A stretch of 64,000 nt of DNA from Laetmonice hystrix. Its lineage: Eukaryota. The position numbers and the translations under genes are program-made. Below are positions 8,795 through 57,331 of this stretch, piece by piece. The notes under the pieces are model-generated. The model saw only the letters and a list, made by a program, of their open reading frames with translations, ran no database searches and was not told the DNA's origin. Numbering within the stretch: the stretch's first letter is position 1; the number at the start of each line of letters is the position of its first letter. The DNA lies in NCBI GenBank assembly GCA_965235115.1, contig OZ249436.1:310001-374000 (forward strand), in the 5' to 3' direction.

Positions 8795-9646
8795 TCTGTC
8801 TCTATGTGTCCATCTGTCATGACCTGGCACTCACCCAACTGTCTGTCTGTCTGTCTGTCTGTCTGTTATGACCTGGCACTCACCCAACTGTCTGTCTGTT
8901 ATGACCTGGCACTCACCCAACTGTCTGTGTGTTTCTGTCTGTATGTGTCTGTCATGACCTGGCACTCACCCAACTGTCTGTGTGTTTCTGTCTGTATGTG
9001 TCTGTCATGACCTGGCACTCACCCAACTGTCTGTGTGTTTCTGTCTGTATGTGTCTGTCATGACCTGGCACTCACCCAACTGTCTGTCTGTCTGTCTGTC
9101 TGTCTGTCTGTATGTGTCTATATGTCATGACCTGGCACTCACCCAACTGTCTGGCTGTCTGTCCGTCTGTTATGACCTGGCACTCACCCAACTGTCTGTC
9201 TGTCTGTATGTGTCTATATGTCATGACCTGGCACTCACCCAACTGTCTGGCTGTCTGTCTGTTATCACCTGGCACTCACCCAACTGTCTGTCTGTCTGTC
9301 TGTCTGTTATGACCTGGCACTCACCCAACTGTCTGTCTGTCTGTCTGTTATGACCTGGCACTCACCCAACTGTCTGTCTGTCTGTCTGTCTGTTATGACC
9401 TGGCACTCACCCAACTGTCTGTCTGTCTGTCTGTTATGACCTGGCACTCACCCAACTGTCTGTCTGTCTGGCTGTCTGTCTGTTATGACCTGGCACTCAC
9501 CCAACTGTCTGTCTGTCTGTCTGTCTGTTATGACCTGGCACTCGCCCAACTGTCTGTCTGTCTGTATGTGTCTGTATGTCATGACCTGGCACTCACCCAA
9601 CTGTCTGGCTATCTGTCTGTCTGTTATGACCTGACACTCACCTAAC
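8795..9646. repeat. Composite minisatellite: atgacctggcactcacccaac plus variable (TCTG)n
   Basis: ~19 copies; ends ~15 bp before the LIG1 acceptor. Confidence 0.95.
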
Positions 9647-9661
9647 GTTATTTTCCTCCAG

Positions 9662-9760
9662 TGTGTTTGGCCTGAAGAAGCCGGAGACCGAAGTCAAGTA
9701 TCGCCCGGAGAAGTCCTCCTACCATCCCGTCGATGACGCCTGCTGGGCGCACGGAGAAAA
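9662..9760 (+). CDS. LIG1: LIG1 exon (first visible): [33 protein letters not shown]
   Basis: ttttcctccag acceptor, GTAAGC donor; matches LIG1 YHPVEDACW motif at start of the DNA-binding domain. Confidence 0.9.
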
Positions 9761-12700
9761 GTAAGCAAACCTCAACCCTTTCTGTTGATCTTCCGCACTT
9801 TCATCTTTCTTTTGTCTCCTGCTACCTTCCATCTTCAAAGTCTTGCAACCCTCGGGGCTGTAGATACGCGTAATGAAAACTTTGGGTGATTTTTTTTCTG
9901 ATTCAAATAAAGCATTGTTCAGAATTATAAGGGGATGGTATGGTTTTCTTAATGTCGTCTCGATGTCTTCATGATGGATGTATAATTATGAAAACTTAGA
10001 AACTAAAGATATCTTGCTATGGATAAGAACAAAATCTAGTTAGTGAAGGTATTGAAATAGAACATGTGGATGGCCCGTTTGAAGTGGTCTCTATGGGAAC
10101 AAAAGCGCCGTTGGGTTTGCTAGACTGTCTGTGCCTGGATTGTGCCCCCGCCCCGACCCTTGCCAGGTTTTCATCGACCTGGTTTGCCACCAGGGGGCAG
10201 TAGTATCAACATGATCCCAGAAACCTGTGTTTGCTTAACGATTCGGTGCTGTAACCGTGTGATTTAGTTTGCAATGTTTGCTCTGAAATTCTTATTTGGG
10301 TTAAGTTGGTTGCATGGGCAAAGAAATTGGCATTGGACTCCTATGTGCTGTTTCATGGCCAATTCAATCAATTCTGTAGGTCTATATTTTTCCAAAAGAA
10401 AAATTAATTAAGCTGGAAAGTAAAATCCATTTTGAACATTTTAGTTAAATACTTAAAAGCTGACTACATTATTTGCAGTTTTAGGATTGTAAATTGCAGG
10501 ATTAATGTGTTTGATTTACAAGGTGTGCTGTCAGTGAGAGTGTTTAATGTGTTTTATTTACTAGGTGTGCTGTCAGTGACAGTGTTTAATGTGTTTGATT
10601 TACAAGGTGTGCGGTCAGTGAGAGTGTTTAATGTGTTTGATTTACAAGGTGTGCTGTCAGTGAGAGTGTTTAATACTTTAATGTGTTTGATTTACAAGGT
10701 GTGCGGTCAGTGAGAGTGTTTAATGTGTTTGATTTACAAGGTGTGCGGTCAGTGAGAGTGTTTAATGTGTTTGATTTTCAAGGTGTGTGGTCAGTGAGAG
10801 TGTTTAATGTGTTTGATTTACAAGGTGTGCGGTCAGTGAGAGTGTTTAATGTGTTTGATTTACAAGGTGTGCTGTCAGTGAGACTGTTTAATACTTTAAG
10901 GTGTTTGATTTACAAGGTGTGCTGTCAGTGAGAGTGTTTAATGTGTTTGATTTACAAGGTGTGCTGTCAGTGACAGTGTTTAATGTGTTTGATTTACAAG
11001 GTGTGCTGTCAGTGAGAGTGTTTAATACTTTAATGTGTTTGATTTACAAGGTGTGCTGTCAGTGAGAGTGTTTAATGTGTTTGATTTACAAGATGTGCGG
11101 TCAGTGACAGTGTTTAATGTGTTTGATTTACAAGGTGTGCGGTCAGTGACAGTGTTTAATGTGCTTGATTTACAAGGTGTGCGGTCAGTGACAGTGTTTA
11201 ATGTGTTTGATTTACAAGGTGTGCGGTCAGTGAGAGTGTTTAATGTGTTTGATTTACAAGGTGTGCGGCCAGTGAGAGTGTTTAATGTGTTTGATTTACA
11301 AGGTGTGCGGTCAGTGAGAGTGTTTAATGTGTTTGATTTACAAGGTGTGCGGTCAGTGAGAGTGTTTAATGTATTTGATTTACAAGGTGTGCGGTCAGTG
11401 ACAGTGTTTAATGTATTTGATTTACAAGGTGTGCGGTCAGTGACAGTGTTTAATGTGTTTGATTTACAAGGTGTGCGGCCAGTGAGAGTGTTTAATGTGT
11501 TTGATTTACAAGGTGTGCTGTCAGTGAGAGTGTTTAATGTGTTTGATTTACAAGGTGTGTGGTCAGTGACAGTGTTTAATGTGTTTGATTTACAAGGTGT
11601 GCTGTCAGTGAGAGTGTTTAATGTATTTGATTTACAAGGTGTGCGGTCAGTGACAGTGTTTAATGTGTTTGATTTACAAGGTGTGCGGTCAGTGACAGTG
11701 TTTAATGTAAAAGGTGGCTGTGGGCAGATAATGGTGGAGGCGGGGATTAATGATCTATTTAACACCAGGGGGCACTCGCTATTGTTGTAAAGTCGGATAC
11801 CCGCCGACTGGGATGTGAAGGGTTATCTCATTTACTATCAGTAATTACCCTGAGGTTATCTAGAGTTACAATGTCTAGCCGTCGTGATTACACACATTAT
11901 TTTAAATGTCCATTGTTAGGTGAAGTGAGGAAATGAAAGTTTTAGGAAGCTATTATTCACAGCGAAGGATCAGATTATAATCGAATGAAGAAAACATTAG
12001 TTGTGTTTAGTTCAACTCAGTTTTACTGGTCCTGCTTCTAACAATAAAACCTGCACATTTCATACACAAGGACTTCCAAAAGGAATAGGAAGAGTTCCTC
12101 TAACTCATTACATGCTCCTTTTGGAAAGACCAAATTCGTACAGTCGTACAGTGATATCACGGAACTGTTATGTTCTCTTACCAGAGTTCCCTACTTGGCT
12201 CTGGCTAAAACATTTGAGGCAATCGAGGCAGTGTCTGCACGGTAAGTGACATTCCTTTCTTTGTTGGGTTAAATGAATTATTATAAGTTTTTATTCCTAT
12301 TGAACCTATTTTTATATATTAATAACCAAGATTTTTTGGTTTTTTGTTTTTATGTTTTTTGGTTCTTTTAAAATCCAGGTTAAAGATGATCGAGATCCTG
12401 AGTAACTTCCTGCGTTCCGTGATGGTGCTGACACCTGGTGACTTACTCAAGTGTATGTACCTGTGTCTGAACAAGATCTCGCCAGACTACGAGGGTTTGG
12501 AACTGGGAATCGGCGAGAGTTTGTTAATGAAAGCCATCGCTCAGGCTACAGGTACGTTTATAGGTGGGAGAGTTTGTTAATAAAACTCATCACTCAGGCT
12601 ACAGGTACGTTTATAGGTGGGAGAGTTTGTTAATGAAAGCCATCGCTCAGGCTACAGGTACGGTTATAGGTGGGAGAGTTTGTTAATAAAACTCATCACT

Positions 12701-55731: not shown

Positions 55732-55795
55732 GGTCAAAAAGCCCAACAGGCGAAGAAAGGAGTCGTATTATTTCGGTCTAATTGGATCGATCTGC

Positions 55796-56332
55796 CACGC
55801 CCCTCCCCTGCACAACACGTGTGCCACGCCCCTCCCTCGCCCAACACGTGTGAAAAACACACGCCCCTCCCCGCCCAACACGTGTGAAAAAAACACGCCC
55901 CTCCCCCCGCCCAACACGTAAAACAACACGCCCCTCCCCTGCACAACACGTGTGAAAAAAATGCCCCTCCCCCGCACAACACGTGTGAAACAAACACGCC
56001 CCTCCCCCGCACAACACGTGTGAAAAAACGCCCCTCCTCCGCACAACACGTGTGAAAAAACGCCCCTCCCCCGCACAACACGTGTGAAAAAAAACAGCCG
56101 TTTACAATATTAGCACAGACAAGCATATTGTGTATAATTGTTCCTTTAAATATTAGCACAGACAAGCATATTGTGTATAATTGTTCCTTTAAATATAGCA
56201 CAGACAAGCATATTGTGTATTGTTCCTTTAAATATTAGCACAGACAAGCATATTGTGTATTGTTCCTTTAAATATTAGCACAGACAAGCATATTGTGTAT
56301 TGTTCCTTTAAATATTAGCACAGACAAGCATA
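55796..56332. repeat. Two adjacent short arrays (~38-41 bp and ~41-43 bp units)
   Basis: cgcccctccccgcacaacacgtgtgaaaa (55796-56095); atattagcacagacaagcatattgtgtattgttcctttaa (56107-56332). Confidence 0.9.
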
Positions 56333-56428
56333 CATGTATTGAGTATTGTTCTTATTTTGTCCAATAAAACCAACCAACACTAGAAACAGCCTCAAAATCT
56401 GGCGGCCGACTTATCGTCAGTCCGACAC

Positions 56429-57331
56429 TTTAGGTCAGAGGCAGACTCCACGGCTGGTTGTGGGGACGATCCCTGGTGTCGGTCTGACCCTTAGGTCAGA
56501 GGCAGACTCCACGGCTGGTTGTGGGGACGATCCCTGGTGTCGGTCTGACCCTTAGGTCAGAGGCAGACTCTATGGCTGGTTGTGGGGACGATCCCTGGTG
56601 TCGGTCTGACCCTTAGGTCAGAGGCAGGTTCCACGGCTGGTTGTGGGGACGATCCCTGGTGTCGGTCTGACCCTTAGGTCAGAGGCAGACTCCACGGCTG
56701 GTTGTGGGGACGATCCCTGGTGTTGGTCTGACCCTTAGGTCACAGGCAGACTCTATGGCTGGTTGTGGGGACGATCCCTGGTGTCGGTCTGACCCTTAGG
56801 TCAGAGGCAGGTTCCACGGCTGGTTGTGGGGACGATCCCTGGTGTCGGTCTGACCCTTACCACGGCTGGTTGTGGGGACGATCCCTGGTGTCGGTCTGAC
56901 CCTTAGGTCAGAGGCAGGTTCCACGGCTGGTTGTGGGGACGATCCCTGGTGTCGGTCTGACCCTTACCACGGCTGGTTGTGGGGACGATCCCTGGTGTCG
57001 GTCTGACCCTTACCACGGCTGGTTGTGGGGACGATCCCTGGTGTCGGTCTGACCCTTAGGTCAGAGGCAGACTCCACGGCTGGTTGTGGGGACGATCCCT
57101 GGTGTCGGTCTGACCCTTAGGTCAGAGGCAGGTTCCACGGCTGGTTGTGGGGACGATCCCTGGTGTCGGTCTGACCCTTAGGTCAGAGGTAGGTTCCACG
57201 GCTGGTTGTGGGGATGATCCCTGGTGTTGGTCTGACCCTTACCACGGCTGGTTGTGGGGACGATCCCTGGTGTCGGTCTGACCCTTAGGTCACAGGCAGG
57301 TTCCACGGCTGGTTGTGGGGACTATCCCTGG
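56429..57331. repeat. Minisatellite, 61 bp (and 44 bp) unit containing the last ~15 codons and stop of the ankyrin/SOCS gene, ~16 copies
   Basis: ttaggtcagaggcaggttccacggctggttgtggggacgatccctggtgtcggtctgaccc. Confidence 0.96.

Follow-up and report, generated by a model that had tools for sequence, protein, structure and literature searches.

The question raised by the locus examined here is why tandem arrays come to lie so close to the edges of exons and to stop codons. The locus, hereafter the window, is a 64,000-nt stretch of the genome of Laetmonice hystrix (assembly GCA_965235115.1, contig OZ249436.1, positions 310,001 to 374,000 of the forward strand), situated near the start of a 73.8-Mb contig, 0.31–0.37 Mb from the contig end, in a 627-Mb assembly of 35 contigs. 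It harbors the genes for DNA ligase 1 (LIG1) and for a CBX chromodomain protein, both on the + strand, and an ankyrin-repeat gene on the − strand. The window is a gene-dense chromosome end, 45% of which is made up of young, mutually unrelated, locus-specific minisatellites, and many of these arrays appear to be pressed against exons and against all three stop codons.

A first, sequence-only reading of the window had offered two explanations for this pattern, namely that the birth of arrays is biased to exon boundaries, or that introns that were originally small have been inflated by arrays, with selection removing the events that occurred inside exons. The results reported here favor the latter: short introns have probably been inflated by randomly seeded arrays and the interiors of exons cleared by selection, the hugging of exons by arrays being a matter of geometry. 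Arrays pressed against exons would then need no special mechanism once the size of the array-free intron is taken into account, and the null model of collapsed introns used below provides a simple baseline for any genome-wide claim that arrays hug exons.

Array Edges and the Size of the Introns

Array edges were determined with Tandem Repeats Finder (TRF) and by in-register self-comparison. Four arrays of the + strand end shortly before LIG1 acceptors, at 15, 32–36, 28, and 18 nt, in close agreement with the first estimates of ~15, ~35, ~28, and ~18 bp. They are an array with 45/53-bp units at 8813–9646 (last intron base 9661), a 61-bp-based array at 15403–17004 that starts 133 nt after its donor (GT at 15270; acceptor at 17036), a 40-bp × 10 array of 100% identity at 18731–19131 (91 nt from the donor; acceptor at 19159), and a 28-bp × 49 array at 24441–25812 (131 nt from the donor; acceptor at 25830). 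On the donor side, a 62-bp × 56 array with a 314-bp higher-order period (26779–30310, +) does lie near the LIG1 donor at 26744, as noted earlier, at a distance of 34 nt rather than ~28 bp, and it ends 431 nt before the acceptor. The periodicity of a 104/216-bp array in the CBX gene (38107–39177, +) begins at 38107–38123, 12–28 nt beyond the exon that ends at 38094, a range that includes the ~15 bp first given. The overlap reported for the LIG1 donor at 12551 is also found: a 53-bp × 22 array at 12515–13687 (+) crosses the exon-intron junction, starting 37 nt inside the exon. Other LIG1 arrays do not hug an edge, such as the 42-bp × 28 array at 10502–11708 (+), whose mid-intron position leaves 741 nt to the donor and 476 nt to the acceptor; a 13-bp × 14 array at 14351–14533 (+) is separated by 82 nt from its donor and by 368 nt from its acceptor.

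Arrays are present in 8 of the 16 LIG1 introns. The array-free introns are 99–716 nt long (median 292, n = 8), and the array-bearing introns have a similar size, 119–1217 nt (median 168, n = 7), once their arrays are subtracted (Mann–Whitney p = 1.0); the eighth array-bearing intron (4.9 kb) also contains high-copy dispersed repeats and is not among these seven. These sizes fit the idea that small introns were inflated by arrays. Since the underlying introns are ~100–700 nt long and the units 30–100 nt, many array edges fall within tens of nucleotides of splice sites.

The comparison called for by the first reading, of the distances between array ends and splice sites with a null computed after collapsing each array, was performed on the window together with ~299 kb of the same genome that contain CCT chaperonin (PF00118) and Ras (PF00071) genes; on this sample, rather than genome-wide, the distances in introns match the null. 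In the model, an ancestral unit of length u falls with equal probability anywhere in the collapsed intron, overlap with either junction being allowed, so that the distance d5 to the donor is uniform on [−u, S+u], S being the summed flanks, and counts are evaluated with the Poisson-binomial distribution. All TRF arrays in resolved introns were counted, giving 30 arrays in nine genes of three gene families. The procedure that locates junctions by GT-AG, reading frame, and profile continuity retrieved all 11 of the LIG1 junctions defined by homology, and it resolved 31 of 49 adjacent exon pairs in CCT genes and 7 of 9 in Ras genes.

Within the window, 6 of the 16 arrays found in 10 introns have an edge at most 40 nt from an exon or overlap one, as compared with 4.48 expected (P = 0.21). 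For the 14 arrays of CCT and Ras genes elsewhere, 6 do so vs. 4.74 expected (P = 0.30), and for all 30 arrays the figures are 12 and 9.22 (P = 0.13), or 10 and 8.56 if three very small arrays are left out. The positions of the arrays in collapsed introns do not depart from uniformity (Kolmogorov–Smirnov, KS, p = 0.33). The edge distances thus match the null of collapsed introns, the outcome that the first reading had itself set as refuting, and a bias of array birth toward exon boundaries, one of its two proposals, is neither needed to account for them nor supported at this sample size.

Coding Sequence and Junction-Spanning Arrays

The second element of this explanation, selection inside exons, is visible in the coding sequence (CDS). 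No array lies wholly within the 4,633 nt of identified CDS, while 6.7 would be expected at the collapsed non-coding density (P = 0.0012); with arrays of at least 100 nt only, the expectation is 4.7 and the count again zero (P = 0.009). The earlier suggestion that events inside exons are removed by selection is in keeping with this deficit.

Arrays that straddle a splice junction, in contrast to those internal to CDS, are found, four in the set of 30 vs. 4.91 expected. In the first, the LIG1 array at 12515–13687, the unit begins with 37 nt of exon and continues with GTACG, and since the array starts inside the exon that ends at 12551 the donor itself is repeated: CAG|GTACG occurs 22 times at 52–53-nt spacing, as copies of CAGGTACG, and 8 of the 22 donor copies reproduce 15 nt of the authentic site without change. 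Any later copy, if used as a donor, is predicted to lead to an in-frame stop. Two more arrays span donors of a single CCT gene at C6:37.0 Mb. One, of 70 bp × 17 (L040:6994–8182), incorporates the last 36 nt of an exon and GTGAGT, and the other, of 31 bp × 5 (L041:4170–4327), the last 17 nt of an exon and GTAAGG, with 100% identity. The fourth, of 86 bp × 16 in a CCT gene at C1:73.1 Mb (L038:2657–4038; C1:73.11 Mb), spans an acceptor together with the first 63 nt of the exon. Both CCT genes are located near other contig ends.

It is plausible that such arrays persist because tandem duplication leaves one intact junction beside the exon. Up to 22 tandem copies of a donor and 16 of an acceptor are tolerated by essential genes, those of DNA ligase 1 and of two CCT subunits, as are repeats of a stop codon. 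The junction-spanning arrays, with 22, 17, and 5 donors and 16 acceptors, represent natural substrates on which directional splice-site choice may be studied on both sides of the intron.

Arrays at the Stop Codons

The three stop codons of the window count among the points against random seeding. Arrays had been reported to start 6–7 bp after the LIG1 and CBX stops and to overlap that of the ankyrin gene, and the measurements concur, with gaps of 6 and 6 nt and an overlap. The LIG1 stop, TGA at 31212–31214, is followed by a 66-bp × 3.8 array at 31221–31468 (+; TRF and self-comparison). Downstream of the CBX stop, TGA at 48907–48909, the periodicity of a 55-bp array (86-bp in its first part) extends over 48916–49603 (+), although TRF itself sets the start at 48927. 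The third array, 61-bp-based and without assigned strand (56430–57333), covers the last 46 nt of the ankyrin CDS and the stop codon at 57285–57287. Its gene-nearest unit contains the end of the CDS with the stop, and ten later copies keep the stop-bearing motif, making this array the stop-codon counterpart of the junction-spanning arrays. The ankyrin-repeat gene, identified with Pfam (57285–58583, −), has a single-exon CDS running from 58583 to 57288, and its product is 52% identical to a 426-residue orthologue (P0122), the alignment reaching to within 3 residues of both ends. As P0122 aligns end to end, the C-terminus of the ankyrin protein, including its last 15 residues, is ancestral.

How surprising these positions are depends on the local density of arrays. 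This density was taken from the region downstream of LIG1 and the 8.4-kb spacer between the convergent CBX and ankyrin genes, where 11 inter-array spacers average 335 nt. It gives a probability of 0.021 per stop for a gap of at most 6 nt, and of 0.17–0.20 per stop for an array start between one unit before and 6 nt after the stop. Accordingly, two gaps of at most 6 nt have P = 4e-4 and three stops within the wider interval P = 0.006, values that nominally weigh against chance. Two loci elsewhere point in the same direction. One is L003, at 0.44 Mb from the beginning of its contig, where the stop of an open reading frame (ORF), a candidate gene end, is 70 nt into a 69-bp array; the other is L068, 1.16 Mb into its contig, where 23 nt separate the stop from the array that follows. 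Together, 4 of 6 chromosome-end stops have an array within 6 nt or overlapping, and 1 of 6 has one at 23 nt. When stops with a downstream array are compared, the contrast between 3 of 3 in the window and 0 of 10 elsewhere gives p = 0.0035 in Fisher's test.

An association with stop codons could be real in the genes of chromosome ends if the start of the 3′ untranslated region were permissive for arrays, or if selection kept only the stop and its immediate context. Were it so, it would speak for a rule, selective or mutational, that connects arrays with the end of translation and has yet to be described. This explanation is nonetheless unlikely. DNA-level processes are blind to stop codons, and therefore only selection could act, yet selection gives no reason for an edge placed exactly at the stop. 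The pattern, moreover, was picked after looking, among many possible features. Elsewhere in the genome, of 24 Ras ORFs that cover the domain profile to its end, none has an array overlapping its stop or within 10 nt of it. In the 10 of these 24 with a downstream array within 1.4 kb, the array starts at 23–1402 nt, with a uniform distribution (KS p = 0.99). Three plausible CCT stops have no array within 500 nt; the C1q family, with 10 matches in the genome, added no stops to the sample. The flanks of the arrays also lack a common motif or a hidden extra copy: on the coding side, no degenerate copy was detected beyond what shuffled sequences yield for LIG1 (p = 0.75) or CBX (p = 0.20), and the flank beyond 57333, on the ankyrin side, resembles an array copy no better than shuffles do (p = 0.24).

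Near chromosome ends, a preference of arrays for starting just after or across stop codons is accordingly given slightly less credence still. The arrays 6 nt after two stops most likely reflect coincidence, arrays being ~335 collapsed nt apart, and the pattern as a whole is probably a coincidence selected after the fact in a belt of near back-to-back arrays, as illustrated by the spacers beside the ankyrin gene, which measure 64, 8, and 97 nt.

Proposed Origin of the Arrays and Alternative Explanations

In the explanation that we prefer, inflation of short introns by randomly seeded arrays, short local segments (13–149 bp, median 49) of a belt at the chromosome end would be repeatedly duplicated in tandem and amplified into minisatellites, likely through replication slippage and unequal exchange. 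Both this mechanism and a link to recombination are conjectured from the parallel with the pseudoautosomal region of the mouse (PMC13050634). Where along a gene a seed segment falls would be essentially random. Selection would purge the arrays confined to coding sequence, while those in introns, untranslated regions, and spacers would stay, as would those whose seed lies across an exon edge or a stop. In the latter case, tandem duplication would keep one intact copy of the junction beside the exon, and the remaining copies would become intronic or untranslated.

Mutational bias toward exon boundaries, for instance through DNA breaks or template switching at the edges of nucleosomes or wherever transcription or splicing stalls, is a less probable origin than this by a wide margin. 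It can draw on the nominal excess of edges at up to 40 nt noted above, 12 vs. 9.2 overall and 6 vs. 4.5 in the window, on a count of 7 vs. 4.7 on the acceptor side (P = 0.16), and on the array at 8813–9646, which ends 15 nt from an acceptor and stands outside the test because the exon upstream of it was not found. The sample behind the preferred explanation is small, 30 arrays from nine genes of three families, those outside the window numbering 14 and coming from two families, and 18 of the 49 adjacent CCT exon pairs fall outside the resolved set. The gene models add a reservation of their own, in that all splice sites are inferred from homology and consensus rather than from RNA, and one of the CBX exons (43226–43289) is putative and weakly supported. 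Against a bias at birth, however, no threshold between 10 and 60 nt gives a P value below 0.1. Observed and expected numbers for the 30 arrays are 5 and 6.0 at 10 nt, 8 and 7.1 at 20 nt, 9 and 8.2 at 30 nt, and 13 and 11.1 at 60 nt (P = 0.23–0.79; 0.41–0.79 for thresholds of 10–30 nt), and thus at the shortest distance there are fewer arrays than expected. Junction-spanning arrays are not in excess and positions are uniform, as described above, and 10 of the 16 window arrays keep a distance of more than 40 nt to both edges, in several cases one of 470–3,600 nt.

That the arrays or their edges are artefacts of assembly is very improbable, for although the short-read contigs of four sequencing runs, which may share their sample with the assembly and so not be independent of it, break inside every array, and one of them joins across the 13-bp array by skipping 170 nt at 14356–14527, the same contigs pass out of unique flank and into the outermost units at the edges given here (for example 8253–8826, 9584–10531, and 11680–12544), and the arrays have internal variants and higher-order periods.

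Intron lariats were also weighed as a rolling-circle source of arrays, the unit then reaching from donor to branch point, and rejected: on their 5′ side the acceptor-near arrays are preceded by 91–133 nt of unique sequence, and the intron is much longer than their units.

A Chromosome-End Population of Minisatellites

In the window, 107 TRF rows merge into 44 arrays that occupy 28,919 of the 64,000 nt. The 31 arrays of at least 100 nt have periods of 13–149 nt (median 49), divisible by three in 9 cases, and 3.7–56 copies, with matches mostly of 92–100%. Their head-to-tail organization and units of ~10–100+ bp are those of minisatellites. No 8-mer is present in more than 3 of the 31 units, and the window arrays are therefore regarded as mutually unrelated, with the exception of those at 59578–59734 and 60339–61207, which are built of one common unit. 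A GC-rich core shared by arrays, of the Jeffreys type, was not found among the 31 units either, their GC content ranging from 0.18 to 0.66, in a window whose 2-kb bins have 35–58% GC. As for locus specificity, each of the 3 arrays (of 44) queried against the 627-Mb genome, including those at 18731–19131 and 26779–30310, matched only its own locus. In a bulk genome search with 19-kb queries from the window, the matches scored, 38–39 of 2,439–3,829 candidates, were all dispersed repeats.

The load of arrays is a feature of chromosome ends. Arrays with a period of at least 10 cover 34% of 5 loci situated less than 1.5 Mb from a contig end, as opposed to 4.3% of 19 loci farther in, and over these 24 loci from 8 contigs coverage declines with distance to the contig end (Spearman −0.69, p = 2e-4).

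Several single arrays have peculiarities of their own. That at 8813–9646 contains no AG dinucleotide in 834 nt, where base composition predicts ~25; its units include branch-point-like CTCAC/CTAAC words and (CTGT)n tracts, and a single unit would be free of AG by chance in ~1 case in 4. The arrays at 538–1465 and 26779–30310, otherwise unrelated, both have the word GTTTATTGACC, and 36-nt matches connect the latter with an 82-nt-spaced array on another contig (C5:3.65 Mb). At C2:7.50 Mb (L071), an array of 1,084 nt with 44-bp units ends ~15–17 nt before a Ras exon match whose acceptor was not placed.

Comparison With Known Systems

A close known parallel to the LIG1 array at 12515–13687 is the variable number tandem repeat (VNTR) in intron 7 of human F7, a 37-bp minisatellite whose first unit spans the donor of exon 7, and in which only the most upstream of the identical donors is used, according to the account of Borensztajn et al. 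(2006; PMC1557585). In both arrays, the first unit takes in the end of the exon with its authentic 5′ splice site, pseudo-donors that are identical or nearly so come after it, and the two donor arrays of the CCT gene on C6 are likewise built as described for the F7 VNTR. While that account speaks of “several” copies, there are 22 in LIG1 and 17 in the CCT gene. The present arrays further include counterparts at an acceptor (86 bp × 16) and at a stop codon, which go beyond what is described there for F7; silence of the pseudo-sites is a prediction in their case.

Classical human subtelomeric VNTRs have units of 10–150 bp arranged head to tail, are locus-specific, and are strongly enriched toward chromosome ends. 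The window arrays resemble them in all these respects, the size range of the units included, but a common GC-rich core was not found in them, and the 45% density of arrays over 64 kb of genic DNA is far above that of human subtelomeres. Enrichment of VNTRs in human subtelomeres is suggested, for its part, in PMC7608644.

The closest situation described is that of the mouse pseudoautosomal region, in which nearly all introns of short-intron genes are occupied by minisatellites, and the arrays have been attributed to very frequent recombination and unequal crossover, as presented in PMC13050634. Like the window, that region is described as a chromosome end with short underlying introns filled by minisatellites. 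It differs in that a single family (mo-2 and mo-2-like) dominates and that the exons are extremely GC-rich, whereas each array of the window has its own unit and GC ranges from 35 to 58%. A search of the literature for measurements of the distance between arrays and exon edges retrieved no such study.

Gene Models and Other Features of the Window

Gene models combine homology, GT-AG splice sites, and reading frame. No splice joint was present in the contigs of the four sequencing runs, which come from one sample and all behave as genomic. The exon translations of LIG1 match animal DNA ligase 1, with Gigantopelta aegis as the best named match (79% identity over one exon). Tblastn with six homologues, combined with a scoring of GT-AG pairs for frame and alignment, placed 17 exons between 9662 and 31214. 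The exon at 9662–9760 (+) is the first that homology and junction scoring can place, tblastn at E ≤ 5 having given only insignificant matches upstream of 9662. The last 37 nt of the exon at 12379–12551 (+), with its donor, constitute the first unit of the array that follows. The last coding exon (31125–31214, +) can be aligned with the C-terminal tails of homologues all the way to the last residue, with a score of 100 vs. 33 ± 4.6 for shuffled sequences, and 72 of 77 such tails score at least 30 against it.

Three LIG1 introns deserve mention. The 99-nt intron at 15071–15169 is in frame and stop-free, within an open frame that spans 14884–15273, and its retention would add 33 residues. At 17604–17733, the contigs of three DNA runs have 11 other letters in place of 128 nt, which may represent an allelic indel. 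The 4.9-kb intron exhibits a very high depth of short-read words.

The chromodomain of the CBX protein is encoded by exons at 37704–37772, 37874–37918, and 38030–38094 (+), assigned by homology; the first of them is matched by residues 1–23 of a Capitella CBX protein (P0245). The putative fourth exon (43226–43289, +; 64 nt, AT-hook-like) is suggested by a tblastn match to the same protein (E = 1.3), by GT-AG borders, and by a phase that fits both neighbors. The last exon (47827–48909, +) encodes a CBX7_C motif (Pfam E 8.7e-12), and a relative (P0242) is 76% identical to it. In the ankyrin protein, residues ~314–357 form a segment that may be SOCS-box-like; Pfam reported no SOCS box in this protein at E ≤ 0.01.

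Apart from LIG1, CBX, and the ankyrin gene, Pfam searches with 184 other ORFs of the window (60 + 124) brought to light only a reverse-transcriptase fragment. It lies between LIG1 and CBX, at 34446–35468 (−), in an open frame of 341 residues with an RVT_1 domain (E 4.7e-26), and represents a fragment of a retroelement. Dispersed repeats with many genome copies of 88–97% identity occupy 2707–3106, 42293–42889, and ~20700–24500. A segment of ~490 nt at 50713–51204 is 99–100% identical to a 335-nt-spaced satellite that occurs in tandem on many contigs, and thus belongs to a dispersed family, unlike the local arrays.

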